From a virus: a stretch of DNA of 64,000 bases. The DNA lies in UHGV virus genome UHGV-0174779; one strand, written 5' to 3'. A model generated the notes under the pieces. The model worked only from the letters and a program-made list of their open reading frames with translations, was not told the origin of the DNA and made no database searches. A program made the translations under genes and the position numbers. Shown here in pieces: positions 25,240 to 50,781 of this stretch (its first letter is position 1; every line of letters starts with the position of its first letter).

Positions 25240-26211
25240 ATGTCAATCTCCACAACGATCGTACCTCTGAATCTTCAACAAGATTTAGGGGAACAGAAGT
25301 TCTTAGGTCGTGGGTGCTTCGGTATTCACAACTACATGCAAGGCCAAGTCATAAATGACATTAATGGCGACTCTGTAATGGAAGAAGGGATTCATAAACG
25401 CTTCAACCGTGATATCAACTTGCAATTGGAGATGTTGAATTACTGGACTCACTCTTTTCATGGTCTCGCTGCATCTGACATTGAAAAGAACTTGGTTGAA
25501 ACAGCAGACATTATGAACTCTATGTCTTGCTATCGTGATGTATTTACGATCACTTCAGCGAATAGTGTTGCTGTCAACCTCCGTGAGCATCCAGCAGATC
25601 AAATCTTCACAGGACTTATGCTCTTCCGTAGTATTCTGGAAGGGCAGTATCGTGGAATGGATTTCCTATCAGAAGGAATTGAAGACAGGGAAGAGTGGCT
25701 GAAGCGTAAACGCATCGGAATTGCTCTAGTGTTAGCTGGGTTAGGTCGAGACTTCTTCGGTGGATGGTCTCAACGAGGAACCTCCAATGGGAGTGGAGAG
25801 AACACATCCATTGTTATTAACAACAATATGTCAGCAGCAGCATTCCTTCCTTTGGTTGTAGACTCTGATGAATACACGAAACAAGTGTGGGTTCAAAACC
25901 CCTTCGGTGTTGGTGACAACAAGGACGGTTATGTTCGCAACCATAACCAAGATGCCTTACGAAGATTTGCTCGTGCTAAAGATCAAGACCCGGACGAGTA
26001 TGAAACAATGTCAGAGTGGTTAAGACTCTGGTCCAGCTGTCATGGTCACAAACGTGAAACAATAGACAATAAGTTGGAAAACATTACAGTACAAAACTTT
26101 ACAGCCCGATTGATTCAGCGTACTGGTCCAACTTCTGGCCTTACGACTGAAGAAGTTGGTAACACAATCTCATCTCTCTTTTCTGAACTAGTGGAGTATT
26201 ACAATGACTAA
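25240..26211 (+). CDS. Hypothetical protein (member of ligase/amidotransferase block)
   Basis: 323 aa, 10-nt gap from upstream gene, overlaps downstream start. Confidence 0.55.
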   Translation: MSISTTIVPLNLQQDLGEQKFLGRGCFGIHNYMQGQVINDINGDSVMEEGIHKRFNRDINLQLEMLNYWTHSFHGLAASDIEKNLVETADIMNSMSCYRDVFTITSANSVAVNLREHPADQIFTGLMLFRSILEGQYRGMDFLSEGIEDREEWLKRKRIGIALVLAGLGRDFFGGWSQRGTSNGSGENTSIVINNNMSAAAFLPLVVDSDEYTKQVWVQNPFGVGDNKDGYVRNHNQDALRRFARAKDQDPDEYETMSEWLRLWSSCHGHKRETIDNKLENITVQNFTARLIQRTGPTSGLTTEEVGNTISSLFSELVEYYND

Positions 26212-27010
26212 GCGCAAATTCTTAATAGGCAGCGACCCTGAGCTCTTCGTTCGTACTAGCAACGGAATCATCACCTCTGTAGCCGGTCTTCTAGGCTGCT
26301 CTAAGGACGATAAGATCGCTCTGGCTAAGGATGTTCGTCTTCAAGAGGACAACGTATTGGCTGAGTTTGATATTGACCCACAGAGCGGTTTTGAAGCGTT
26401 TAATGATAACATGCAACGTGGTATTGATCTCACCAATAGAGTCCTGAACAAACTGGACATGGAAACAGCTCCGGGTGTTAGCTCTCACATCTTCACTGAA
26501 GAGGAGATGAAGACTTTCAATGAATCAGCGTTCATCTTCGGATGTACTCCTGATTTCAACGCTTTCACTGGTCAGAAGAATCCATCCCCGACTTCTCAGA
26601 ACAAGGGGCTTCGTACTGCCGGTGGTCACGTACATCTTGGCGTAGTTGGTTCTTTGGATATCACTCTGCAAACTCAGATGATGCTGGGTGTGCTGTGTGA
26701 CTACTTCCTATCACTCCCAGCAGTTATCATGGATAAAGATACTCGCCGTAAAGAACTTTATGGCAAAGCATCTGCAATCCGTTATAAGGACTACGGTATT
26801 GAATACCGTTCACTGTCCAACTTCTGGATTAACGATCGTGAAAATCGTAAGTTTGTTTACGATCAGGTTGACAAGGTTGTTCAGCAGTGTGATATGTCCA
26901 CTCTGATGGCATTGCACTCTCGTCTTCCGATTGAGAAGCTTCACGAAATTATTAACGGTAATAACGTTAAAGAAGCGGACCAGCAGATCAAACTCCTTCA
27001 GGTAGCATAA
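26204..27010 (+). CDS. Possible carboxylate-amine ligase (amidoligase-like, weak)
   Basis: 268 aa; N-terminal GSDPELFV and central GGHVHLG loosely resemble the G-x-E-x-E and H-x-H elements of the neighbouring amidoligase. Confidence 0.4.
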   Translation: MTKRKFLIGSDPELFVRTSNGIITSVAGLLGCSKDDKIALAKDVRLQEDNVLAEFDIDPQSGFEAFNDNMQRGIDLTNRVLNKLDMETAPGVSSHIFTEEEMKTFNESAFIFGCTPDFNAFTGQKNPSPTSQNKGLRTAGGHVHLGVVGSLDITLQTQMMLGVLCDYFLSLPAVIMDKDTRRKELYGKASAIRYKDYGIEYRSLSNFWINDRENRKFVYDQVDKVVQQCDMSTLMALHSRLPIEKLHEIINGNNVKEADQQIKLLQVA

Positions 27011-27019
27011 GAGGTTATC

Positions 27020-27637
27020 GTGAGCTTAGTAGCTGATTTTTCTCATTACTATAGTGGCACATGGATTGCTAAACGAGCAGGCAACATCAACCTTCCCTGT
27101 TTTGTGATTGGTGTTGAGCAGAGAGGTAACTTCCGCAGCGACGACTTCTCACATGAAGCAGAACAAGCTCTGTACTTTGTTGTAGAGCAATGGTACAAGA
27201 ATGAGAACGGGATTCTCCGAAACACTACGATGAATATTCCAGTGTTTGACCCAACCTTGATTCTTGAATCACCTGATGTTGGCTATCTGTTCCATAATGG
27301 TAACACTGTAAGCTGGACTCATATCAACCCTGTTCGTCAGAGAGCGAAGGGTTTGGTGGGTAACAAGATTCGAAATGCTCCGGGGGTTGGTCGTTCTATC
27401 TCTGGGGAAATGGTTTACAGTCTATTCAATCCTGAATTTGATGGATTGGTTACTCGTTACATTTACATCAACCCTACAGATGGTAAAGTGCATTATAAAG
27501 GTGCACGGGTAGGTCAGGTAGATCTGGAAGCACCTCGTGACTCTTACGGTCAGCAACCGATGCGACTTCTGGAACATTTTCATCACATCTCTGAAAACCT
27601 TAGCAATTATAATATTACGTTGGTGGATTCGTTATGA
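27020..27637 (+). CDS. Hypothetical protein (member of ligase/amidotransferase block)
   Basis: 205 aa, GTG start, stop overlaps next start. Confidence 0.5.
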   Translation: MSLVADFSHYYSGTWIAKRAGNINLPCFVIGVEQRGNFRSDDFSHEAEQALYFVVEQWYKNENGILRNTTMNIPVFDPTLILESPDVGYLFHNGNTVSWTHINPVRQRAKGLVGNKIRNAPGVGRSISGEMVYSLFNPEFDGLVTRYIYINPTDGKVHYKGARVGQVDLEAPRDSYGQQPMRLLEHFHHISENLSNYNITLVDSL

Positions 27638-28737
27638 CAACTGTAGCGCAAACTTTTGGATATCGAGAAGGTCGTTTAACTGAGGCGCATAGTTCAATTG
27701 CACTTCAGTGCGGTGTCGGTATTGAACTTGAACTCGAAGGTTCTGAACATATCGAAGCAGATATGTGGGATTGCACAGAGGATGGTTCCCTGCGTAACGG
27801 TTGTGAAATGGTATGTTCACGACCTTACAACGGACAGGAGTTGTTAGACGCTATCAACAACCTGAGTGAAGCAGTAGCTGAATCGCACGCCGAGGGGACT
27901 TGGCGTTGCTCTACTCACGTTCATATGGATATGAGGGATGCTGATAGTAATATCCTCAAGAAGACCATTCTAGCTTGGACCTTCTATGAAAAGATGTTGT
28001 TCAAGTGTTCAGGCTACCATCGTTACCGTAGCAACTTCTGCCCTGCTTTCGCAGTGGTACAAGCACAGGTAATGAATGCCTCTGACGCATTTAACTACGA
28101 CGATGAAGAGTTCTTCAACCGTCTGGTTCGTTCATGGGATAAATATACATCTCTGAACCTTCTGCCACTTGCCCAATATGGTTCGATCGAGTTCCGTATC
28201 AGTGAGCCTAAGTGGAAACGTGGTCAACTTCTCAATCTGGTTAACCGCTTCTTAATGTTGAAGAAGCTGGCTTTAGATAACGCAGAGATGAGCAATGATC
28301 AGTTTATCGAGCATTTAAATACTGTACGATTTGCCCCAATGCTTCCTTATCTTCCACTAGATTACAGTCTGGATGAATTGGATTTGCATTCAGGGTATTG
28401 TATGGCCCGTGATGTTTTGTACTGCCGTTCTCATGAAGTAGAGCAGTCTGGTCGTATTCGTTTACGTCGAACCAACCCAAGTGGAGAAGTTCTTGTTGAC
28501 TTACGTCTTATCTCAGACTTCTATGGATACCTTGGATATGTCCGAGGGAATGCTAACAACTTGTACCAAGAGATTTTGGTCATGCTTAATACAACAGATC
28601 TATCTACTGTACGATCTGCACCAGAGCAATGTATCCGTGAGATCTTTGACTTACTTCGTGAGTCAGGCCATATTGATAATAATATCACAGGGTACATTCC
28701 AGATCATCTGGAGTATCAGTTAGAGCAAGCGCTGTAA
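27634..28737 (+). CDS. Amidoligase (glutamine-synthetase-like carboxylate-amine ligase family)
   Basis: 367 aa; GVGIELELEG, EDGSL, CSTHVHMD, FRISEPKWKRG motifs typical of phage-type amidoligases. Confidence 0.6.
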   Translation: MTTVAQTFGYREGRLTEAHSSIALQCGVGIELELEGSEHIEADMWDCTEDGSLRNGCEMVCSRPYNGQELLDAINNLSEAVAESHAEGTWRCSTHVHMDMRDADSNILKKTILAWTFYEKMLFKCSGYHRYRSNFCPAFAVVQAQVMNASDAFNYDDEEFFNRLVRSWDKYTSLNLLPLAQYGSIEFRISEPKWKRGQLLNLVNRFLMLKKLALDNAEMSNDQFIEHLNTVRFAPMLPYLPLDYSLDELDLHSGYCMARDVLYCRSHEVEQSGRIRLRRTNPSGEVLVDLRLISDFYGYLGYVRGNANNLYQEILVMLNTTDLSTVRSAPEQCIREIFDLLRESGHIDNNITGYIPDHLEYQLEQAL

Positions 28738-28816
28738 TCAATGGGTGCCTCTGATAAAGGGGCACAATTTAAAGGTTAATTAGATGAAAGGGTTTACCCT
28801 TCAGGTGGATTAGAAA

Positions 28817-30847
28817 ATTTGCGGCATCGTATTAGCTGGCGGTAATCTGTCAAGCACCGATTTAGACGTATTCAACCAACTCTTTTATGCTGGGGTATTC
28901 CGAGGACAACATTCCTCTGGTATCTTTGGTCAGCGTAAAAGTACTAAGGAAGTCTTCACTTATAAGGAAGCTCTTCCCTCTTTCGCATTCATCCTACAAG
29001 ATGAGTATAAGAAGCACACCACTGGTGAAACATCTTATACTGTAGCACCTTCATGGATTGTTGGTCACAGTCGTCATGCAACGAAAGGTGCAGTTAACGC
29101 CAAGAACGCCCATCCTTTCCAACACGGTAACATCACTCTGGTTCATAACGGAACCTTGATGGACCAAGATCTGTTACCTGACAGTAAAAACTTCGAGGTA
29201 GACAGTGAGAACATCTGCTACTCTATTAACACTATTGGTGCAGCAGAGACTATTCAAAAGCTGGATGGTGCTTTCACCTTAATCTGGCATGATGCTTCTG
29301 ATAACCGTCTTCATATTATTCGTAACGAAGAGCGTCCTTTCCATCTCGCACGTTGTAATAGAGATTGGTTTGGTGCTTCTGAAGAAGATATGCTGATGTG
29401 GATTCTGAAGCGTTCTAAGTCTCACAAAAACCGAATTGATGAGCACTTTGAATGTAAAGTTGGTACAGAATATATCTTTGATATGTCAAACAACAGCATG
29501 ACTCTGGTTGAAGAGGTCGCCCATGAGCTTCCGGTTTTTACGGTAGTCAATCGTTGGGCCAGTTACTACTCGAACAACTACAGCCAAAGCAATTATCAAA
29601 GCTCCTCAAAAAGCAGTACAAGCAATCCTTACGACACGAAGCCGGGAGTGACAGCGGCAGACGTTCGTCGAAGAAACGCAGTGGTAAGTCAAAACAAAAT
29701 CGCAAGCGATCGAAACATTGATATTCGCCGCGACATGACTGTGGAAATCACACCACATGAATTTGTTCCCTATGCAACTGCTGGTGCTGTTCCTTCTCGT
29801 GGTAAGATGATTGGTTATATCTACGATGAGAAATCTCAAGAGTACATTGAAGGTGATGTTCATAACGTAGACATTAAGGCTTATCAGGATGCCCTGAAAG
29901 ACCCTAAAATTGTTTACCGTGGGACAGTATCCTGCATCTCCGAAGTCGATGCTATGGTTCGTTTAGTAATCACAGCAGGTCGTTTTGTTGACCCATCTCT
30001 GGAGAAAAAGGAGCCTGAGTCAACTACTGCTGACTTCGATGATGATATCCCTTTTGACATGAATGATAGTTTCGTCAACAAGAATGGCGTTACTATCACT
30101 CGTAAATTCTGGGAAGCACACTCTCATGGTGATTGTGGTGGTTGTGACAAGCACATTGATTGGAAGGATGCACCTAAAGCAGTCTTCGCATATCAGTGCT
30201 ACTGGCATCCCGAGTGTCTGGAAAGGTTGACTAAACCTAAAGAGGAAGAAGAGGAGGAGACTCCTATCGGTGTTTGTGAAATCTGTGGTGAGGTTAAAAC
30301 AGAGAATGAGTTCGATGAAGAACTTAGCCGCCTCCGTGGTGAAGATATCTGTAAAGACTGTGCTGTAGAAGTAAAGAAGAAAGTGTCTAATGCTACGATC
30401 AAAGATGGTTATGTCTGGATTAAAGCAACAGATACAACAAACACCCGTCGTCCTGAAATTGCTGTACGTGTAACTGAGGAAATGATTGGTCGTATGACCG
30501 TATTACCCTCCTCAGCGAAACAAACAGGTATCACTCTGGAAGATGTTGTTGATGCTTATGTTGAGAAACGTGGCAACAGTATTTTTGCAATCTCGACTAA
30601 GCCAAAAAAGGAGGAACCTGCTGAGAAAGCAGGTGTGTTTCCTGAATCACGAACAGCTCTCCGCAAAACTGTTGTCAGCTTCGACGGAAATCGAAGCACT
30701 GACTTCACCAAAGCCATGTGGTCAACCCTCGGATACTGCTCAGAGTGTTTTAAGCAGATTCCGTGGCGCGATGCTGAAAGTTGTACGCTTGGTTCTATGA
30801 ATCAAGTTTATTGTAATTCTCCTAAATGTTCATTGAATAGAGGTTAA
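28817..30847 (+). CDS. Class-II glutamine amidotransferase (Ntn-hydrolase) fused to Cys-cluster C-terminal domain; probable AUU start
   Basis: ORF track starts at 29156, but the same frame upstream encodes (I)CGIVLAGG...FRGQHSSGIFG...NAHPF...LVHNGTL, the N-terminal Cys and HPF/HNG signature of class-II GATases. No ATG/GTG/TTG precedes the Cys; AGGTGGA lies 8 nt before ATT 28817. C-terminal part has three Cys4-like clusters. Confidence 0.55.
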   Translation: MCGIVLAGGNLSSTDLDVFNQLFYAGVFRGQHSSGIFGQRKSTKEVFTYKEALPSFAFILQDEYKKHTTGETSYTVAPSWIVGHSRHATKGAVNAKNAHPFQHGNITLVHNGTLMDQDLLPDSKNFEVDSENICYSINTIGAAETIQKLDGAFTLIWHDASDNRLHIIRNEERPFHLARCNRDWFGASEEDMLMWILKRSKSHKNRIDEHFECKVGTEYIFDMSNNSMTLVEEVAHELPVFTVVNRWASYYSNNYSQSNYQSSSKSSTSNPYDTKPGVTAADVRRRNAVVSQNKIASDRNIDIRRDMTVEITPHEFVPYATAGAVPSRGKMIGYIYDEKSQEYIEGDVHNVDIKAYQDALKDPKIVYRGTVSCISEVDAMVRLVITAGRFVDPSLEKKEPESTTADFDDDIPFDMNDSFVNKNGVTITRKFWEAHSHGDCGGCDKHIDWKDAPKAVFAYQCYWHPECLERLTKPKEEEEEETPIGVCEICGEVKTENEFDEELSRLRGEDICKDCAVEVKKKVSNATIKDGYVWIKATDTTNTRRPEIAVRVTEEMIGRMTVLPSSAKQTGITLEDVVDAYVEKRGNSIFAISTKPKKEEPAEKAGVFPESRTALRKTVVSFDGNRSTDFTKAMWSTLGYCSECFKQIPWRDAESCTLGSMNQVYCNSPKCSLNRG

Positions 30848-30852
30848 ATCAG

Positions 30853-31086
30853 ATGGAAATTCGTAAGATGATGTTGGATAATGTTGTAACTACTCGACGT
30901 ATCCCGATGACGAGCACAGGATGTGACAACCTTCGTGCAATCCAGAAGTGGATGCAAGCTGGTATTGGTCAAGTACTTGAGACACAGGTTGAGGTTCCGT
31001 TCCCAACGGTGATCAATAACGTACTTGCTGATTATGTAAAAATCAAAGGCATTAAGGTAGAACCTCATGTCAAATCTGGTTCCTAA
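30853..31086 (+). CDS. Hypothetical protein
   Basis: 77 aa ORF inside the enzyme block. Confidence 0.4.
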   Translation: MEIRKMMLDNVVTTRRIPMTSTGCDNLRAIQKWMQAGIGQVLETQVEVPFPTVINNVLADYVKIKGIKVEPHVKSGS

Positions 31087-31291
31087 GAAACCGAAGATTA
31101 CTCTCCTACAGTATTACATAGGAGTTCATATCGAATTAGTAACGGAGCAGCGAAAGCTGTATCCGTTCGCTTTCGGTCTGATTGATGCACCATCCGATGA
31201 AGTAGAGAACGATGCGTTCAATGACTACTTCGAAATTGAAGCTCAGATTCAAAAAACTCGTAACGAAATTCTTAAACTTAAAGGTATCTAA
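31067..31291 (+). CDS. Hypothetical protein
   Basis: 74 aa ORF overlapping upstream gene end. Confidence 0.4.
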   Translation: MSNLVPKKPKITLLQYYIGVHIELVTEQRKLYPFAFGLIDAPSDEVENDAFNDYFEIEAQIQKTRNEILKLKGI

Positions 31292-31293
31292 CA

Positions 31294-32490
31294 ATGACTA
31301 CTCGTATCCGTGTTCTCCCTTATGGCCCTTCTGATTCAGTTCGTGAACTTACTTCTGCTATTAATGCTAAGATTCAGGAACTTCGACTGAATGCTAACGT
31401 AATGTCTCTGGTATCAGAAAACTCTCGTTATCGTTCTCGAGCCGGTGATATTGTTGTAAACTATGGCAACCGTCGTTATGATGCTTCTTTCTTTGGTGGT
31501 GCAACCGTACTGAACCCTGTTGAAGCCCTGAACCGAGCAGCTAATAAAGTTGCAGCATTTAACGCATTACGGTTGGCTGGAGTTAAGACTGTTGAATATA
31601 CCGTTGATCGTGAAGTAGCTCAGAGCTGGAACCAAAACGAAATCGTTTATGAGCGTGCAACCTTAACTGGACATTCTGGTGAAGGCATCACCGTACGTCT
31701 TCCGGGAGAAGGTACTGCAAGTGCTCCTCTGTATACGAAAGGTATTCAAGGTCCGCGTCGTGAATGGCGTGTTCATGTGTTCGAAGGTGTTATCACTTAC
31801 GTTCAGAAGAAGATTCGTCGTAATGGATATCGTGAACTGGAAAGCTATCGTGAAAATATTCGCAACCATCACACTGGCTGGGTTTACTCTAACTCTTTCA
31901 CTGAAGCTCCTCCTGATCAAGTTCTGATTCAAGCCCACAAAGCTGTGTCTGCTCTGGGTTTAAACTTCGGCGCTGTTGACCTGATTAGTAAAGGCTCTAA
32001 CGCTTGGGTTCTGGAAGTAAACACTGCTCCGGGTCTGACTGGTACAACTCTGGAAACTTACACTCACAACATTGTTGAGTTTGTTAAGAGCTTCTCTGGT
32101 GTTGAGCCTGACTACCGCGTTGCTTACGAACTGCCTGTTGAAGAGTCGGAAGTTGAGTTTGCTGACTCAGCGGATGATGAGAACTTTGCATTGACAGCTG
32201 AGCCAGTTGCTGAAGAGTCATCTGAACCTGTTCCTGAAACAATGCAAGTGGAAGAACAAGGGTTAGAGATCAACCCAATCACCCGTCGTACCCTGCGTCG
32301 TGGTTATTATATCGCGAACATCAAGCATCCTGAAAACGGCTCAACTGTAGCAAGTAATGTAATTGTTTTCTTCTGCGGTCGTAACTTCTACCGCTCTGGT
32401 TGGAACGCACCAATTAGTGATCGTCAGCTTGGTCGTGTGTTGCAGATTAATAGCCTTACCCTGAATGATGGCACTGTTGTAAACTACTAA
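31294..32490 (+). CDS. ATP-grasp family ligase (RimK-like)
   Basis: 398 aa; EWRVHVFEG, GWVYSNS, LGLNFGAVDLISKGSNAWVLEVNTAPGL are characteristic ATP-grasp C-terminal motifs. Confidence 0.75.
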   Translation: MTTRIRVLPYGPSDSVRELTSAINAKIQELRLNANVMSLVSENSRYRSRAGDIVVNYGNRRYDASFFGGATVLNPVEALNRAANKVAAFNALRLAGVKTVEYTVDREVAQSWNQNEIVYERATLTGHSGEGITVRLPGEGTASAPLYTKGIQGPRREWRVHVFEGVITYVQKKIRRNGYRELESYRENIRNHHTGWVYSNSFTEAPPDQVLIQAHKAVSALGLNFGAVDLISKGSNAWVLEVNTAPGLTGTTLETYTHNIVEFVKSFSGVEPDYRVAYELPVEESEVEFADSADDENFALTAEPVAEESSEPVPETMQVEEQGLEINPITRRTLRRGYYIANIKHPENGSTVASNVIVFFCGRNFYRSGWNAPISDRQLGRVLQINSLTLNDGTVVNY

Positions 32491-32496
32491 GGATAT

Positions 32497-32745
32497 ATGG
32501 ATATGTTTTCATTGGAAGATCTAGTACAAAATGGAATGATGGAACAAAAAGAGCCTCTGATTGTAGGCTCTCGTAAAGAGTTGCGTAAGTTGTGTGAGGA
32601 ATGGGGTATTACTAATCAGCGAATGATTGGTAATCAATTCTCTGCAATTGTAACTTTCCTGAAACGTGGTGATAAGTATTCTATGGAATGTGTAGAACGT
32701 ATCATCGCTGAAGCACAACAAGACAAAGGAGTGACCTATCTGTGA
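32497..32745 (+). CDS. Hypothetical protein
   Basis: 82 aa ORF. Confidence 0.4.
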   Translation: MDMFSLEDLVQNGMMEQKEPLIVGSRKELRKLCEEWGITNQRMIGNQFSAIVTFLKRGDKYSMECVERIIAEAQQDKGVTYL

Positions 32746-32927
32746 ATAAGTATAAAGTTCTGTTTAAAGATACCAATGCCGCTGGTGAAATGCGAGCTAT
32801 GGACCTAGATGCTGATATGTTTAACTTCTCTGATGGCAAAGTGACCTTCTTTCAGGGAAGTGAAGCTGTTGCAATGTTTGAGAGTGCAGCAATCTGTGGT
32901 GTAATCAAAATCTTTATTACAGAGTAA
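32742..32927 (+). CDS. Hypothetical protein
   Basis: 61 aa ORF, GTG start overlapping upstream stop. Confidence 0.35.
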   Translation: MNKYKVLFKDTNAAGEMRAMDLDADMFNFSDGKVTFFQGSEAVAMFESAAICGVIKIFITE

Positions 32928-32996
32928 TCTGCTTTAGCCTCTTCGAAAGAGGGGGCTAGTTCGGATAAACTAAACAAACCAACAAAGGTATAGATA

Positions 32997-33416
32997 ATGT
33001 CAGAAGTAATTTACGTAGCAACTTATGGAAGTTTGAGAAGCGGTCAAGCTAACTATTTAATTAATGACCGAGCTGGTGCTAAATCTATTGGTGAAGGTTG
33101 GACTGAAGATAACTTCGATCTGTTCCGTTACGGTGGTTCCTACTTCCCGAGCATCTCTCTCGCACACAGCAATAACAATAAGCCTGTTCGTGTAGAAGTG
33201 TTTGCTACTGACAAAGCAGGTCTGGAAGGTCCATATGACCGTCTGGAAGGCTACAACAAACATAGCCCTGAAGATAGCTTCTATCAGCGTACCCAGATTG
33301 CTGTTAAGATGGACTCAGGTGAAACTGTTATCGCTTGGATTTATCATATCGACGAAGAACAAGATGTTCTGGTTGAGTCAGGAGACTGGTCAGAGTATCT
33401 AAAAAACGAGGGTTAA
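32997..33416 (+). CDS. Gamma-glutamyl cyclotransferase-like (AIG2/GGCT fold) protein
   Basis: 139 aa; N-terminal YVATYGSLRSGQANY and downstream acidic residues match the GGCT-like signature. Confidence 0.55.
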   Translation: MSEVIYVATYGSLRSGQANYLINDRAGAKSIGEGWTEDNFDLFRYGGSYFPSISLAHSNNNKPVRVEVFATDKAGLEGPYDRLEGYNKHSPEDSFYQRTQIAVKMDSGETVIAWIYHIDEEQDVLVESGDWSEYLKNEG

Positions 33417-36293: not shown

Positions 36294-36844
36294 AGAAAAA
36301 GAAGAAAGTGTTTGCATTCGATATCGAGAGTAATGCACTATACGATGATATAACCAAAGTGTGGTGTATTTATATTTTCGATGTTGAAACTGATGAAAGG
36401 TGGGGCTATCGGCCTCACCAAATTGAAGATGGGATTCGTAAGCTTACAGAAGCTGATGTGATCTTAGGTCATAACATTATTGACTTCGACCTTTGTGCTC
36501 TGAAGAAAATGTATCCCAATCTGATCGACTATCGTTTTAACGTCTTCGACACTTTATGTCTTAGTCGATATCTTAAACCTGACCGTATTGGTGACAGTCC
36601 TGAGTATCCGAAAGGCGACCCTAGACATGGCCCAAGAGGTCATGGCTTGAAGCAATGGGGTGAGTTCTTAGGGGAACTTAAAGGTGATTACGGTGAGCAA
36701 GAGGAAGCATGGGATGCTTTCACTGAGGATATGTTTACTTATTGTGAACAGGACGTTAACTTAACTGTTAAGGTTTATAAATACTTGTGTGAACTCACAG
36801 GATTTGACCCTTACGACCCACCTTCATTATATTGGAAAATGTAA
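36287..36844 (+). CDS. DNA polymerase, 3'-5' exonuclease subunit (T7 gp5 N-terminal domain as a separate gene)
   Basis: FDIESNAL (Exo I), [13 protein letters not shown] (Exo II), FTYCEQDV (Exo III); ORF stops where the T7 polymerase domain would begin. Alternative GTG start at 36308. Confidence 0.8.
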
Positions 36845-36845
36845 A

Positions 36846-38132
36846 ATGATTGTTATCCCGATTAACCGAATTGCAGATAAGGTTGCTCAACAACCTGATA
36901 TCACTGTTGGTCGTCACTTCATTGAACAGTTGATTAACAACAACTTGATTCCAGACTGTATTTGTCCCATCATCACTGGTGGGGCTGTTCGTGATGCTGT
37001 TCTTAATAACAGAGCACCTCATGACATTGATATCTTTATTGTCAGAGGACAGGCCCCAAGAACTCGAAATACCTTTATCCACCATGACCAGTGGCAAGAT
37101 CTCGGACGAGAGGTTGAAAGTAATGTGAAGGAATGGCTAGAATCACAAGATATTGAATATGCATCCCTTCTTGCTGAATCTACAGATGAGCCGTATACTG
37201 GGACTTCTCAACTAACATTCACTGATATTATTGAGTTTCAGTGGAATGGGGTTCGTATCCAATTCATGTTTAATTATCCTACTTCTATTGAAGAGGTATT
37301 GGATAATTTTCCTATGATGTGCCGTGGTGCGATGACTCTTGACAAGCTGTTCATGACCCCCCAGGGATATTTGGCTATGACCTCTCCTTGTCCAGTGGTT
37401 GTCTCTAGTCGTGAAATCAAGTATGTTCACAAGAAGTGGCCTAATTCACAGGTATTAAGATTCTCCGATCCATCTGTTGCATATCAATATATGGCACAAA
37501 CTCGATACCTTCCTACACCTCAACCAGTTAGTCATCTGGTCAACGAACGAGGTCAGGTTGCTCTTATTGAGGATACAACAAGTGCTCATTATTGTGTTAA
37601 TCGTGACATGAGTCGATTCTTTGGGATCCCTTATGAAGAGATTCAGTTAATGTCAAGCATTCATAGCTCTAGCCAGATTCATGCGTATTGGTCTGAAGGG
37701 TTGACAAATTTAACAACTAACACGGGTGGTGATCTGCTTGGTCGAGAAGAAGACTCTAACCGACACAATGCAATTGAAGGGGTTTTTGTATCCCCTACAA
37801 TGCGTCGAGCACAAGAGTCACGAAGAGTAAGCCCTACTCGTAGAATATCTTTTGAAGATCTTGGTATTACAAGCGATTCTATGGAGCAATGGATGGCTAG
37901 ACCTTCTCGTGGTCGATCAAATGGCTTTACTGTCGGCGCACGTCAGTTCTCTGGTCAGGGTTTTGCTGTTGGTGATATCAACGCACCTGTTAGGGCTGTG
38001 TGGACTGATGAAGATATGGTAGAGAGTCGCGCTGATCAATTTGTTTCAAATAATCCTGAAGTATTAGAACCTCAAACCCGTACAGTTCGGTTTGCCGATG
38101 AATCGGGTCGCGGTTTCTCTTTTGAAATGTGA
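36846..38132 (+). CDS. Nucleotidyltransferase of the CCA-adding / poly(A)-polymerase head type
   Basis: ORF 36789..38132; ATG 36846 directly after the exonuclease gene stop. Motif ITGGAVRDAVLNNRAPHDIDIFIV matches the GGxVRD...DxD signature of class-II tRNA nucleotidyltransferases; C-terminal 300 aa unrecognised. Confidence 0.55.
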   Translation: MIVIPINRIADKVAQQPDITVGRHFIEQLINNNLIPDCICPIITGGAVRDAVLNNRAPHDIDIFIVRGQAPRTRNTFIHHDQWQDLGREVESNVKEWLESQDIEYASLLAESTDEPYTGTSQLTFTDIIEFQWNGVRIQFMFNYPTSIEEVLDNFPMMCRGAMTLDKLFMTPQGYLAMTSPCPVVVSSREIKYVHKKWPNSQVLRFSDPSVAYQYMAQTRYLPTPQPVSHLVNERGQVALIEDTTSAHYCVNRDMSRFFGIPYEEIQLMSSIHSSSQIHAYWSEGLTNLTTNTGGDLLGREEDSNRHNAIEGVFVSPTMRRAQESRRVSPTRRISFEDLGITSDSMEQWMARPSRGRSNGFTVGARQFSGQGFAVGDINAPVRAVWTDEDMVESRADQFVSNNPEVLEPQTRTVRFADESGRGFSFEM

Positions 38133-38153: not shown

Positions 38154-38708
38154 ATGAGTTTACTAGGAAGCCCAGAGTTACATAAATTAATTGACGATGG
38201 TGTTATTGATGCACCACACTCAGCTGTTAATTCCTCCAGCATTGATGTTCGTATTGGAGATCGCGTTCTGATGGAAGGTGCAGCTAATGGGGTTGTTGAT
38301 ATCTCTGCTAAAGAGTCCCCTAACTTCAATGAGGTTATGATTCCAGAGGAGGGGTTGGTGATCAAACCGGGTGAGTGTTTCTTAGCTCATACAGTGGAGA
38401 CATTCAACCTTCCAGACAACATTAGCTGTGACTTCATGCTACGGTCTACTGTCGGTCGTTGCTTCTTAGAGCACATGCACGCTGGTCATGCTGATGGCGG
38501 TTGGCATGGCAGTCAGTTAACTATGGAATTCAAGAATGTCCTACAGCACCACTCTTTGCTAATTAAACCGGGGATGCGTATAGGTCAAATGGAGTTCTTT
38601 AAACATTCCTCCTCGGAAGAGGATAGCTACGCAACGAAAGGTTCCTATAATAATCAACAAGGGCCAACAAAAGCTTTTGGTGGAACAAATCATGCTGATA
38701 TGGTATGA
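38154..38708 (+). CDS. dCTP deaminase / dUTPase-family protein
   Basis: 184 aa; SSIDVRIGDRV, GxxxxGHADGGWHG, LIKPGMRIGQMEF, YNNQQG in Dcd-like order. Confidence 0.65.
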   Translation: MSLLGSPELHKLIDDGVIDAPHSAVNSSSIDVRIGDRVLMEGAANGVVDISAKESPNFNEVMIPEEGLVIKPGECFLAHTVETFNLPDNISCDFMLRSTVGRCFLEHMHAGHADGGWHGSQLTMEFKNVLQHHSLLIKPGMRIGQMEFFKHSSSEEDSYATKGSYNNQQGPTKAFGGTNHADMV

Positions 38709-39017: not shown

Positions 39018-39347
39018 ATGTTAGATTTGAGTAAAGTGGCCCCGCCCACTGAAGAGATTACAAAATCCAAGGTGATGCAACAGTTTTATCATCGTGATAT
39101 GCTTGGTCGCTTTATCAAGAATCGTGATGTTGTTGCTTGGTCTATCGGTAATCAGGGATATCTGTTGAAGGTTCTTCAGGTTACAGGTTCAACTGCTAAG
39201 CGAGTTAAGGTGTATGACCCTGAAATGGGGCGTTCTAAGTCAGTAGACCCACAGAACTGCATCGTAATTACCCAGCAGGTAATGGATAATATTGCACGTA
39301 ACGTTGCTAACTCAGTTGAACTTGATGGAGAAAACCCAAATGCATAA
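39018..39347 (+). CDS. Hypothetical protein
   Basis: 109 aa ORF, GAGAG RBS; preceded by an AATGTATATAG element. Confidence 0.45.
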   Translation: MLDLSKVAPPTEEITKSKVMQQFYHRDMLGRFIKNRDVVAWSIGNQGYLLKVLQVTGSTAKRVKVYDPEMGRSKSVDPQNCIVITQQVMDNIARNVANSVELDGENPNA

Positions 39348-39903
39348 GAATGTCTTTGATTTACCTGAGATTGGTCGTGACAGCTATAGTGTGTTAGACC
39401 GGTCTGAGCTTTCAATCTCTCGCCTTGAAACAATGCAGGGTATGATTAGTGGAAACAGCCTAGAACACATCCTGAGCTGCTTACAAGCTAACATGGAACT
39501 CTTGCATATCAAAGCTAAAAACTACCACTGGAACGTCTCTGGTGCAGGATTTCAGGGTGTTCATGGTATGTTTGATGAGCTGGAAGATTACGCACGACAA
39601 GTAGGAGATCGTATTGCTGAACGTATGCGATACCACTGTGTTAAGGTGGATGCTACAGCAGCTAATTATCTTTCTCACGCTTGGTTCTCAGAGGGTAATG
39701 CTGACCTAGATATGGACGGTATGCTCTCTGATATGTGCATGACCTTGATGTGTATTATCGAGAAGATGGATGAGTTTGATGGCGATTTAGCCTCCTATCC
39801 TGTCGACCAGAGTATGCTTCAAGAAATTAATGAAGGTCTTGGCAAGTATTGTTACTTCGTCAAGAGTAACATGTCCCATTCCAGTGGTGATGTGTCTTAC
39901 TAA
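39340..39903 (+). CDS. Dps-like ferritin-fold protein
   Basis: ORF 39292..39903; ATG 39340 overlapping upstream stop; HIKAKNYHWNVSGAGFQGVHGMFDELEDYARQVGDRIAERM matches the Dps signature. Confidence 0.6.
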   Translation: MHKNVFDLPEIGRDSYSVLDRSELSISRLETMQGMISGNSLEHILSCLQANMELLHIKAKNYHWNVSGAGFQGVHGMFDELEDYARQVGDRIAERMRYHCVKVDATAANYLSHAWFSEGNADLDMDGMLSDMCMTLMCIIEKMDEFDGDLASYPVDQSMLQEINEGLGKYCYFVKSNMSHSSGDVSY

Positions 39904-40151: not shown

Positions 40152-40430
40152 ATGTCTAAAGTAATTAAGTTTTATAGTGATCAGTGTGCTCCATGTAAAG
40201 CAATGGCTCCTACCTTTGAGAAGGTTGTTAAGGAGTTTGATGTAGAAGTGGAAGAGATTAACATCCTTGAAGGTGATGGTCGTGAACAAGCTGTTAAGTA
40301 TGGTGTACGAAGTATCCCTGCTTTCGTTGTGCCTGACCGTAACAGTGGTGCACACTACAGCCTCTCTGGTATGCAGACTGAAGCAAACCTGAAAGCATTT
40401 TTGGATACAGCTCTGAATGGTAATCGATGA
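40152..40430 (+). CDS. Thioredoxin-like protein
   Basis: 92 aa; CAPC active-site motif in thioredoxin-fold context (KFYSDQCAPCKAMAP...IPAFVV). Confidence 0.7.
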   Translation: MSKVIKFYSDQCAPCKAMAPTFEKVVKEFDVEVEEINILEGDGREQAVKYGVRSIPAFVVPDRNSGAHYSLSGMQTEANLKAFLDTALNGNR

Positions 40431-40887
40431 TTTAGAGTATATCCCTGAAACTGGAGAGTTCTTTCGAAAAGGTAAGAAATTAGGAGGAACTCGAAGTAAG
40501 TACATAACCCTGCGGTTTAAAGGGAAAGTACACAAAGCTCATAAAGTGGCATGGTTCTTTTACTATGGAGAATGGCCTTCTTCTCAGATAGACCATATCG
40601 ATAGAAATAAGAAGAACAACTCAATACAGAACTTGAGGTTGGTGGACACCTCGACAAACTGCCACAACCAGTTCGGGGCTAGAGTATCAAACAAGGAAAC
40701 AGGGCTTCAAGGTGTTAAGGTTGTCAAATACAGATCAGGCACTATCAGATATAGGGCTGTTATTTGTATTGATAAAGTAGATATACATCTAGGTATGTAT
40801 GGAACTGCCGAAGAAGCTCATCAAGTTTACATGAATCGAAAAAAGGAACTTTTAATTGAACGAACAACTACAAGCAACACTGATTGA
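40417..40887 (+). CDS. HNH homing endonuclease
   Basis: 156 aa; HKVAWFFYYGEWPSSQIDHIDRNKKNNSIQNLRLVDTSTNCHNQ. Confidence 0.7.
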   Translation: MVIDDLEYIPETGEFFRKGKKLGGTRSKYITLRFKGKVHKAHKVAWFFYYGEWPSSQIDHIDRNKKNNSIQNLRLVDTSTNCHNQFGARVSNKETGLQGVKVVKYRSGTIRYRAVICIDKVDIHLGMYGTAEEAHQVYMNRKKELLIERTTTSNTD

Positions 40888-41512
40888 AGCAATGGGAAGT
40901 GACAAATCTGTAGTCAATGCAGCTAGAGTATCTTTCGGTGTTGTTCGAGAAGGTGACTTAAATGAGAGAGACACAAAACTTATCAACTTCCTTGCACGGG
41001 AAAAACACTGTACTCCATTCCGACACCCGCAAGTCAGTTTCCGATGCAAAGCACCTATCGCAATTGCGAGACAGTTGGGCAAGCATCAGGTTGGATTCTC
41101 GTGGAACGAAATGTCCCGGCGGTATAAAGATGGAGCAGTTGAAGTCTTCATCCCTAAAGAGATTTTTGCGAGACCTTCGGACCTCCATGCAGGTTCAGGG
41201 ATTCAACTCCTCAACGGAGAACGAGCTGAAGCATTAATGCTGATTAACGATGCATATGAAGCTTCTCTAGCAGCATATGACAAGTTGATTGAATTCGTTG
41301 CACCAGAGCAAGCCCGATTTGTTCTTCCTCAGGGGATGATCACTGAGTGGGTGTGGACTGGTTCTTTATATGGCTGGTTTGAGTTGTGTCGTCAGCGACT
41401 CTCCTCTCATGCTCAGTATGAAGTTCGAGTGTTTGCCCAATCTCTAGATGAAGAAATGGCTAAGCTCTACCCAGTCTCATGGGCAGCTTTGAAGAAAACT
41501 TTGGAGAATTAA
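40856..41512 (+). CDS. thyX: Flavin-dependent thymidylate synthase ThyX-like protein
   Basis: VVNAARVSF, LINFLAREKHCTPFRHPQVSF and KHQVGFSWNEMSRRY align with ThyX core motifs, but the RHR signature reads KHQ. Alternative ATG start at 40892. Confidence 0.6.
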   Translation: MNEQLQATLIEAMGSDKSVVNAARVSFGVVREGDLNERDTKLINFLAREKHCTPFRHPQVSFRCKAPIAIARQLGKHQVGFSWNEMSRRYKDGAVEVFIPKEIFARPSDLHAGSGIQLLNGERAEALMLINDAYEASLAAYDKLIEFVAPEQARFVLPQGMITEWVWTGSLYGWFELCRQRLSSHAQYEVRVFAQSLDEEMAKLYPVSWAALKKTLEN

Positions 41513-41771: not shown

Positions 41772-41975
41772 ATGAAAACATTGTGGACTTTTGACTGCCA
41801 AGATGATGATGGAGAACGTTGGACTTGGAAATATTTCCTAGGGAAACCAACACCTGATACTCCTGCTTTGGATTGTGTTTCATACAAAGATGCTAAGAAA
41901 TTAGTAAATGGAGAAAAGGTTTGGTCTCCGGATAATGAAGTTCAGTACTTTTTAACAGAACGGAAATTTTCATAA
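41772..41975 (+). CDS. Hypothetical protein
   Basis: 67 aa ORF. Confidence 0.4.
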   Translation: MKTLWTFDCQDDDGERWTWKYFLGKPTPDTPALDCVSYKDAKKLVNGEKVWSPDNEVQYFLTERKFS

Positions 41976-42304
41976 TGATTGACAGTAATACATTTAAGAC
42001 TTCAAATGGAAGTGAGATAAGTCCCGCTGAAGTAATCAATCGGCACAGAAGGCAATTGATCATCCATTCCTATTTGTATTACTGGTTGGATGACCCTATC
42101 TGGTCTGATGATAAATGGCAACAAGTTGCTAATGATTTGGTTGAGTTGCAAGCTTTGTATCCAGATCCTACCGGAGTCTTTGACAATGAGTTCAGGGATT
42201 GGGATGGTTCTACAGGGATGCACCTCCCACATAATGAGGCTGTTGCTTGTATGGCTACAGCTGTTTACAGGATTCATAAAGATATGAACCATGAAGTGCT
42301 CTAA
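41975..42304 (+). CDS. Hypothetical protein
   Basis: 109 aa ORF. Confidence 0.45.
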   Translation: MIDSNTFKTSNGSEISPAEVINRHRRQLIIHSYLYYWLDDPIWSDDKWQQVANDLVELQALYPDPTGVFDNEFRDWDGSTGMHLPHNEAVACMATAVYRIHKDMNHEVL

Positions 42305-48787: not shown

Positions 48788-49958
<1,171 letters not shown>

Positions 49959-49959
49959 C

Positions 49960-50781
49960 ATGGAAGAAGTTAAGCTCCCTGAAGTAGCAATTGTGGACGC
50001 GGATGTTCTTCGATATGAGGTGGGTGCCCTTACTCAGGAGCATCCATTCCTTGACACAGGACGTGTTCCAGTCGATTACAATTTCATGATTGAACGACTT
50101 CAGTACAAGATTGATACAATTATAGCTCGCTCGGGTTGTAGTAAGGTTGTATTCTACTTCAGCGAAGGTGGTAACTTCCGTTTCGATATCGCTAAGCAAC
50201 AGGATTATAAAGGTAATCGAGCAATATCTGAGAAACCCTTCCACTGGAAAGCGGTCGGAGATTATATCAAAGAGCACTATGAGTATATTGACGTCTTTGG
50301 TAGAGAAGCAGATGACGCTTTAGCTGAAAGGCAGCGTAGAGACAAGAACACTATCATCTGTACTAGAGACAAAGATTTATTAATAACCCCCGGATGGCAT
50401 TATCGCTGGGCTTGTGGAGAAAGGCAGAAAGAGGTTCCCCCTCACTACGTATCCGATTTAGTTTCATGGCAAAACTTCTTCTATCAAATGTTGATTGGAG
50501 ATGGTACGGATAATATCCCCGGATGTGGGGAACGCAAAGAAGTTATGTGGGGTGGTAAGCTTCAGCTTCGACGTCAAGGAATAGGGAAGAAGGCAGCAGC
50601 TAAATTACTAGCTGGTGTTACAGACAAATGGACCATGTATCATATAGTGCGAATGGAATATTATAAGAAGTTCGATACTGAAGATGAAGAGAAAATGCTT
50701 GAGAATGCTCGGCTTCTCTTTGTTGGTCAGACTCCAGAAGACCTATTTGATTGGTCATGGTTAAACAAATCTTGGGAATAA
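49960..50781 (+). CDS. 5'-3' exonuclease (T7 gp6-like)
   Basis: 273 aa; YKGNR, EADDALA, ICTRDKDLL, LIGDGTDNIPG in the order of T7 gene 6 exonuclease. Confidence 0.7.
   Translation: MEEVKLPEVAIVDADVLRYEVGALTQEHPFLDTGRVPVDYNFMIERLQYKIDTIIARSGCSKVVFYFSEGGNFRFDIAKQQDYKGNRAISEKPFHWKAVGDYIKEHYEYIDVFGREADDALAERQRRDKNTIICTRDKDLLITPGWHYRWACGERQKEVPPHYVSDLVSWQNFFYQMLIGDGTDNIPGCGERKEVMWGGKLQLRRQGIGKKAAAKLLAGVTDKWTMYHIVRMEYYKKFDTEDEEKMLENARLLFVGQTPEDLFDWSWLNKSWE

Follow-up and report, generated by a model that had tools for sequence, protein, structure and literature searches.

The 64,000-nucleotide virus DNA UHGV-0174779 (hereafter the window, meaning this whole stretch) encodes at positions 40856-41512 a flavin-dependent thymidylate synthase (ThyX) whose conserved RHR signature is changed to KHQ. 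We consider that this protein belongs to a variant viral branch that would still be active in converting deoxyuridine monophosphate (dUMP) to deoxythymidine monophosphate (dTMP), with its phosphate-binding arginines relocated rather than lost. Ordinary flavin-dependent dTMP synthesis with relocated arginines is thus the probable function, with a rough probability of 0.78. As read from the protein sequences, KHQ...SRRY marks a large branch of viral ThyX that we did not find described in the searchable literature, where a search for the KHQ variant, RHR mutants and motif variation in phage ThyX gave nothing on the KHQ variant. Residue positions follow Thermotoga maritima ThyX numbering unless the window ThyX is named.

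The source is a phiEco32/SU10-like Escherichia coli phage. Over the 8 kb around thyX, identity reaches 91-93% with Escherichia phages FH3, ES17 and SU10, which are Kuravirus members of the Gordonclarkvirinae (phiEco32-like C3 podoviruses). The open reading frame (ORF) was present as the earlier note had described it, and only the detail of its start was corrected: the gene begins with TTG behind an AAGGA ribosome-binding site, and relatives without an upstream HNH insertion encode the same MNEQLQ... protein from an ATG. The gene and its elements are as follows.

40856..41512, + strand: thyX of the variant 'KHQ...SRRY' viral subfamily, 218 amino acids, TTG start (Pfam, NCBIfam, AlphaFold2, Foldseek and Kuravirus relatives)
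41081..41125, + strand: variant ThyX signature K76-H77-Q78-VGF-S82-WNEM-S87-R88-R89-Y90 (HMMER against chains of the Protein Data Bank (PDB), homolog conservation and column statistics)
41021..41023, + strand: codon of R56, a candidate relocated flavin-phosphate ligand that replaces Glu58 of canonical ThyX (column statistics and the R58 versus R/K169 exclusivity)
40843..40847, + strand: AAGGA ribosome-binding site, 8 nucleotides upstream of the TTG start (read from the sequence)

By profile match and predicted fold, the 218-residue protein is a full-length member of the ThyX family with the ThyX fold, and the ThyX core seen in the earlier note is upheld. The Pfam profile Thy1 (PF02511) matches residues 8-207 over its whole length (profile 1-191/191) with E=2e-43 and 148.8 bits against a cut-off of 24.8, and the NCBIfam thyX equivalog TIGR02170 scores 128.5 bits, which passes its curated threshold of 87.9. 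An AlphaFold2 model of the ligand-free monomer, built with 58 homologs, has a mean predicted local distance difference test (pLDDT) score of 89.2 and a predicted template modeling (pTM) score of 0.84. Foldseek matches this model to the T. maritima ThyX complexes (1O27/1O26) with template modeling (TM) scores of 0.82-0.83 and a probability of 1.00. The ORF is unbroken and full length in ~100 Kuravirus genomes, and the annotated thyX products of Kuravirus phages are 94-97% identical to the window ThyX.

The residues around the signature of the window ThyX read ARQLG-K76-H77-Q78-V-G-F-S82-W-N-E-M-S87-R88-R89-Y90, and the string KHQVGFSWNEMSRRY lies exactly at nucleotides 41081-41125. In the HMMER alignment with PDB chains, k-h-q stands opposite r-h-r (R78-H79-R80) of T. 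maritima and Thermus thermophilus ThyX, and one residue is inserted ahead of the conserved serine (VGF here vs IA/TA in the two canonical enzymes). The alignment bears out the claim that RHR is not intact and is altered at its first and third residues, to K and Q. The accompanying claim, that the replaced residues contact the dUMP phosphate, stands only in part. Basta et al. list R78 and R80 among the dUMP hydrogen-bond partners in T. maritima (PMC3498832), but in the structures from Mycobacterium tuberculosis (Mtb) and Helicobacter pylori, RHR mainly forms hydrogen bonds with the adenosine monophosphate (AMP) phosphate, the ribityl and the flavin mononucleotide (FMN) phosphate of flavin adenine dinucleotide (FAD), and only its first Arg also contacts the isoalloxazine and dUMP (PMC6514825). 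The equivalents of T55 and R165 (Mtb Ser71 and Arg190) are FAD-phosphate ligands from the second subunit (PMC6514825). ThyX enzymes are FAD-bound homotetramers in which three subunits contribute to each active site.

The altered signature is strongly conserved. KHQxGFSWNExSxRY was found in 115/120 closest homologs, down to 54% identity, in a search of 5.8 billion proteins; the other five were unmatched by the pattern scan and were not inspected. With the same block recurring in these homologs, neither chance nor a sequencing error can plausibly account for the KHQ signature. Across 58 sequences down to 53% identity, 56 columns are invariant, including K76, Q78, G80, F81, W83, N84, E85, S87, R89 and Y90 of the window ThyX, and this conservation is best read as purifying selection. 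Inteins tend to sit at conserved, functionally critical sites. Four metagenomic ThyX homologs of 473-642 residues (P0122, P0239, P0268 and P0195, from four representative clusters) carry inteins (CLTGD...VVHN, +1 Ser/Cys) exactly between KHQxGF and SWNE, and this placement is therefore a sign of a functional signature. A further homolog, P0214, apparently contains another large insertion, starting beside the H53 equivalent.

We compared alignment columns between 83 canonical sequences and 140 variant representatives. A27, R28, S30, H53, P56, F57, R74, Q75, N85, E86, S88, R90, Y91, Y133, E144, R147, R174, Q180, E182 and P199 are kept in both groups. The window ThyX has all 12 substrate and catalytic residues, H51, R72, Q73, E85, S87, R89, Y90, E151, R154, R181, Q187 and E189 (H53, R74, Q75, E86, S88, R90, Y91, E144, R147, R174, Q180 and E182 in T. 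maritima), each of which is ≥88% conserved in the variant clade, and most >95%. The residues contacting uracil, the dUMP phosphate or the folate/flavin stack are all unchanged, and the kept set covers every dUMP contact listed for the Mtb and H. pylori enzymes; these are the first arginine of RHR, the equivalents of R174, S88 and R90, and the lid tyrosine (PMC6514825). Other positions shift together, with R78 mostly becoming K, R80 becoming Q/T/K, G/A89 becoming R (in 100% of variants), M59 becoming H, H/R165 becoming Y/A/L and H169 becoming R. Glu58, present in 83/83 canonical sequences, is R, A or G in the variant clade (R56 in the window ThyX).

The gains and losses of arginine covary. Among ~450 sequences, Arg80 occurs with S-[G/A/Q/Y]-R-Y in 88 and a residue other than Arg80 with S-R-R-Y in ~340; both arginines are present in 4 and neither in 14. 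Within the variant clade, 158 sequences have only R58, 143 have only R/K169, 41 have neither and 0 have both. Exactly three basic residues are spread over positions 58, 78, 80, 89, 165 and 169 in 307/342 variants. One helical turn separates position 58 from T55, and likewise 169 from 165.

Because of the covariation between arginines 80 and 89 and the mutual exclusivity of 58 and 169, we favor relocation. The third Arg of RHR has been lost (Q78 in the window ThyX), the first is usually Lys (K76), and an Arg has been gained next to the catalytic-loop serine (S87-R88-R89-Y90 vs S-G/A-R-Y), where R88 may stand in at the dUMP-phosphate side. A further Arg, at the former Glu58 (R56 in the window ThyX) or, in sister lineages, at 169, may stand in at the flavin-phosphate side. 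From family membership, substitutions, conservation and covariation, we infer that the gained arginines have taken on the binding of phosphates and that FAD is still the cofactor. With the residues that set the chemistry intact, ordinary dTMP should be formed. In the phage, deoxycytidine triphosphate (dCTP) would be converted to deoxyuridine triphosphate (dUTP) by the phage dCTP deaminase, then to dUMP by the host dUTPase and to dTMP by ThyX, moving nucleotides from the dC to the dT pool for a genome of 42% G+C that replicates in a ~51% G+C host. The path from dCTP through dUTP, host Dut and dUMP to dTMP is the normal enterobacterial route, and it suits the G+C content of 42.2% found in the window.

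Database sequences confirm that the KHQ observation is more general than the earlier note knew. At E≤1e-5, the homologs of the window ThyX number 6210. An exhaustive HMMER search covered 1.84 billion representatives at 50% identity, and 0/150 of the best (E<2.5e-36) have Arg at position 80; the first signature position of these is K in 117 and R in 31, and their third position is occupied by Q, T, K, H, V or N. Pattern scans of IMG/VR, each covering up to 600 candidates, found no fewer stretches with the variant (at least 598) than with the canonical form (at least 589). Typed viral loci, taken from the best 80 IMG/VR loci and five phage/genome loci and including close relatives of the window, have KH[QKR] in 81/81 cases (KHQ 60, KHK 20, KHR 1). 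Among annotated phages, KHQ is found in the Chaseviridae phages Erwinia Y2 and E. coli 4HA13, KHK in the N4-like Pectobacterium phage CB3 and Pseudomonas phage PMBT3, and KYT and KYL in Streptomyces phage Jay2Jay and Bacillus phage 056SW001B; RHR is kept in Mycobacterium phage Flabslab, Ruegeria phage V13, PaMx25, RcKeef and two cyanophages. The variant is present in Chaseviridae, Schitoviridae, Zobellviridae, a Maxrubnervirus Pseudomonas phage, and Streptomyces and Bacillus phages.

In a neighbor-joining tree, one clade holds 63/66 variant sequences and 0/47 canonical ones, and sequences share on average an identity of 0.50 among variants, 0.54 among canonicals and 0.35 across the two groups. 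The variant subgroup looks virus-restricted. Source names among the top matches are phages only, except for a 526-bp Herbiconiux fragment, and a scan of 185,579 species genomes found a close relative of the window ThyX only on two short contigs (the same 526-bp fragment and one of 1983 bp), with patterns narrow enough that more distant variant forms in prophages may escape. One homolog named 'Thymidylate synthase ThyX, Staphylococcus phage Pel53' (P0116) is 55% identical to the window protein and has the same KHQ...SRRY, which suggests either that the variant has spread widely by horizontal transfer or that the host was mis-assigned. In Roseobacter phage SIO1 strain mb (L086, match 301-964), the ThyX homolog reads VARQFV-RWNEISRRY with the xHx block missing, and it is split over two reading frames by a frameshift or a sequencing error.

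The canonical ThyX enzymes of T. thermophilus and T. maritima (6J61, 1O26 and others) share the fold of the window ThyX (TM-score 0.77-0.83 over ~210 residues, 32% identity; phmmer E=1.6e-30 and 3.5e-24) and have the same residues at H53, Q75, E86, S88, R90, Y91, E144, R147, R174, Q180 and E182. In contrast, the window ThyX has KHQ for RHR with an extra residue before the serine, R for G89, R for E58, Y for R/H165 and E for N/H169, and it falls in a separate clade. The PBCV-1 enzyme A674R (2CFA, 4FZB) is, like the window ThyX, virus-encoded; it is biochemically characterized, is thought to raise the dTMP supply for an A+T-richer genome, and is far more distant (E=2e-7). By the numbering of Basta et al., it would keep RHR. 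Like the variant branch, it carries a side chain at position 89, and this side chain (Gln in PBCV-1) can enter and occupy the dUMP phosphate pocket (PMC3498832). Cyanophage ThyX proteins with the PBCV-1-type S-Q-R-Y keep RHR.

The entries 4P5A and 4P5B, given as 'Thymidylate synthase ThyX' in the PDB table, are presumably PolB, a ThyX-like enzyme that methylates C5 of UMP/dUMP in polyoxin biosynthesis. As a ThyX-fold paralogue, 4P5A (phmmer E=1.6e-16) would be an example of the fold turned to another substrate, but it is less similar to the window ThyX than bona fide ThyX is, and the window gene lies in a phage replication module, not in an antibiotic cluster. A special link to PolB was rejected, as a Streptomyces-phage variant ThyX matches T. 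thermophilus/T. maritima ThyX first in a PDB search, with 4P5A far behind. The phage ThyA-family hydroxymethylases of dUMP and deoxycytidine monophosphate (dCMP) and 5-hydroxy-dCMP synthases are likewise phage relatives of thymidylate synthase that work on the mononucleotide pool, and they are known entry points to pyrimidine hypermodification, the precedent behind the idea in the earlier note (PMC8989533, PMC13326640). However, their fold and mechanism (ThyA, not ThyX) are unrelated, and in searchable papers the known phage pyrimidine hypermodification pathways have no ThyX-family nucleotide-pool enzyme, only ThyA-family ones.

The surroundings of thyX follow the gene order of SU10: primase/helicase, polymerase exonuclease subunit, nucleotidyltransferase, dCTP deaminase (dcd), several small ORFs, Dps-like DNA-binding protein, thioredoxin (trx), thymidylate synthase, LigA-Ia-like 'DNA ligase', PhoH and DNA polymerase. 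The window adds an HNH endonuclease between trx and thyX. The neighboring genes are as follows.

36789-38132, + strand: 447-residue nucleotidyltransferase, conserved beside dcd (weak match to the PolyA_pol/CCA-adding head domain, 2.5e-4; PHROG 12715)
38154..38708, + strand: dCTP deaminase (Pfam DCD, 1.3e-31; TIGR02274 equivalog, 100.3 bits vs a cut-off of 92.8; PHROG 1663)
39292-39903, + strand: ferritin/Dps-like protein between dcd and trx, called 'DNA binding protein' in relatives (Pfam Ferritin, 2.9e-7; weak Dps matches below cut-off)
40152..40430, + strand: thioredoxin, the conserved upstream neighbor of thyX in Kuravirus (Pfam Thioredoxin, 2.2e-13; SU10 synteny)
40417..40887, + strand: HNH homing endonuclease between trx and thyX that shares 32 nucleotides with the start of thyX (Pfam HNH_3, 1.6e-13)
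41975-42304, + strand: stand-alone 109-residue LigA Ia domain protein (NAD+-binding), called 'DNA ligase' in relatives (PF22745, 7e-35)

The dCTP deaminase-like protein and a 'ligase block' had been taken as pointers to an unusual pyrimidine. Neither serves as such: the deaminase is a standard equivalog match, and the other, a LigA Ia domain on its own, is unconnected to pyrimidine chemistry. No ORF for the remainder of a ligase was noticed, with most small window ORFs unscanned, and the nucleotidyltransferase, put forward by the BASEL authors as a candidate for DNA modification, has no informative PDB relative. Of the 42 long loci that carry variant thyX, 17 have a DNA polymerase close by, and dCTP deaminase or nucleotidyltransferase is near only in the two Kuravirus loci; except for DNA polymerase, no gene of the window's thyX neighborhood recurs beside variant thyX across these loci. 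A dedicated thyX-dcd-nucleotidyltransferase module was rejected, as the dcd, nucleotidyltransferase, thioredoxin, Dps-like and LigA-Ia neighbors occur only in Kuravirus loci. Nothing in the context suggests a modification module built around thyX. Nucleotide-pool hypermodification would go with altered substrate or product residues and conserved partner genes, for example for a kinase or transferases; these were not found, in an analysis that included no search aimed at 5-hydroxymethyl-dU (5-hmdU) kinases.

At 49693-49959, between the sigma factor (49048-49692) and the exonuclease (49960-50781), the 'GTP-binding domain' gene and the 297-residue deoxynucleoside monophosphate (dNMP) kinase of SU10 are missing, and tblastn found neither in the 64 kb window. 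Since it is missing here, the dNMP kinase is accessory in Kuravirus. The dCTP deaminase is 58.5% identical to that of SU10 (L001) vs 99.5% to that of the IMG/VR locus L006, and the flanking genes are 83-99% identical to both; Kuravirus therefore has two divergent dcd alleles, a sign of mosaic exchange. The HNH insertion is absent from the trx-thyX position in SU10, where thyX directly follows trx, and in L006, and the TTG that stands for the ATG of relatives lies at its junction (40856). Homing endonucleases also target thyX, here at its 5' end; in Vibrio phage pVa5, an HNH gene is annotated under the thyX match, which is in two pieces. Farther away, the window carries a phiEco32-type amidoligase cluster (26204-33416, + strand) with a COOH-NH2 ligase type 2, Amidoligase_2, a weak GATase match, a probable RimK-like ATP-grasp protein (so annotated in SU10) and a gamma-glutamyl cyclotransferase. 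No link was found between this cluster and the thyX question.

Gordonclarkvirinae resist the tested restriction-modification (RM) systems, and the BASEL authors, who found no known modification pathway or restriction inhibitor, speculated on dU-DNA from the dCTP deaminase and nucleotidyltransferase (PMC11990801). Since the window has 31 EcoRV and 7 EcoRI sites, a lack of sites does not explain the resistance to these enzymes. Relative to a Markov model, GATC (132 vs 284 expected), CCWGG (7 vs 76) and CTGCAG (0 vs 16) are strongly avoided, and GATATC (EcoRV) is not. For phiEco32, restriction profiles and sub-clones were used to map the termini (PMC9965538). No base analysis of a Kuravirus was found in the searchable literature, and the Durham phage-modification survey holds no Kuravirus data. 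In PBS1-like dU-DNA, dTMP synthesis is absent or blocked; here, the phage encodes a conserved, apparently intact ThyX of predicted activity. This argues against the published suggestion of dU for dT in Kuravirus and would make a wholesale replacement of T by U unlikely.

Several points weigh against ordinary dTMP synthesis with relocated arginines. The literal ThyX signature RHR(X)7S fails, and the window ThyX has KHQ(X)8S instead. No assayed member of the variant clade was found in the PDB or the searchable literature, and the genomes, scanned with narrow patterns, give no sign of any cell that depends on a variant ThyX for dTMP. The covariation between clades must be read as confounded by common descent, the 58/169 exclusivity within the clade less so, and the spatial equivalence of 58 with 169 and of 80 with 89 was deduced from covariation and published contacts. 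An unrecognized DNA modification in Gordonclarkvirinae is a live possibility.

Such a modification would be accounted for if the variant ThyX made a non-canonical pyrimidine nucleotide, either 5-hydroxymethyl-dUMP (5-hmdUMP) via a released exocyclic-methylene intermediate or a product of another substrate, which entered phage DNA. We regard this as quite improbable, and the proposal of such a product in the earlier note is not supported. Two of the three canonical signature residues differ and the spacing has changed, but the uracil, dUMP-phosphate and folate-stack residues are unchanged, and the changes fall on phosphate and flavin-tail ligands and are compensated, with the lost arginine matched by gained ones. 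ThyX chemistry does pass via an exocyclic methylene that nucleophiles could trap (PMC8989533), and new products have arisen repeatedly among phage ThyA homologs (PMC13326640). The clade also looks virus-restricted, with no tested member found in the searchable literature; however, it occurs in many unrelated phage groups without common partner genes such as dcd or the nucleotidyltransferase, and its usual neighbor is DNA polymerase. No dedicated kinase is apparent either, the SU10 dNMP kinase being absent from the window. The RM resistance of Gordonclarkvirinae without an identified pathway (PMC11990801), despite the many EcoRV and EcoRI sites, would fit a modified base, but phiEco32 DNA was restriction-profiled and sub-cloned (PMC9965538), and the avoidance of GATC, CCWGG and CTGCAG is more typical of DNA exposed to host enzymes. 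In a wider form, the branch would release a modified pyrimidine (e.g. 5-hmdUMP, by water capture of the exocyclic methylene) or use the flavin in a new way, and in Gordonclarkvirinae would feed an unrecognized DNA modification that explains the RM resistance; this form seems to us just as improbable. If a product other than dTMP were made, it would be the first known ThyX-based route to modified phage DNA.

It is also unlikely that dTMP is still made but the flavin is handled differently, through weak FAD binding, FMN or free reduced flavin as co-substrate. The AMP-phosphate ligands R80 and R/H165, which are FAD-phosphate contacts in canonical structures, are replaced clade-wide by Q/T/K and Y/A/L, and Glu58, invariant in canonical enzymes, is lost as well; yet a replacement Arg is present at 58 or 169 in 88% of variant sequences, K76, H77, T53 and Y172 of the window ThyX are still available as hydrogen-bond donors, and the fold, including the adenine-pocket region, is predicted with high confidence. 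That thyX is a decaying or inactive remnant is scarcely credible. While the literal signature motif is lost, its KHQ replacement is itself invariant among close homologs, as are the 56 columns down to 53% identity, and inteins are maintained at it. Its weak TTG start and the HNH gene overlapping its 5' end are likewise offset by the ribosome-binding site and by the intact, full-length ORF in ~100 Kuravirus genomes, and neither frequent frameshifts or stops among relatives nor a dN/dS near 1 was seen.

For the ThyX family, the textbook RHR(X)7S fails to describe a large share of viral proteins. The proposed arginine relocations, from 80 to 89 and to 58 or 169, would serve as a natural experiment on the binding of the flavin and dUMP phosphates, and may bear on ThyX enzymology, inhibitor design and motif-based annotation.

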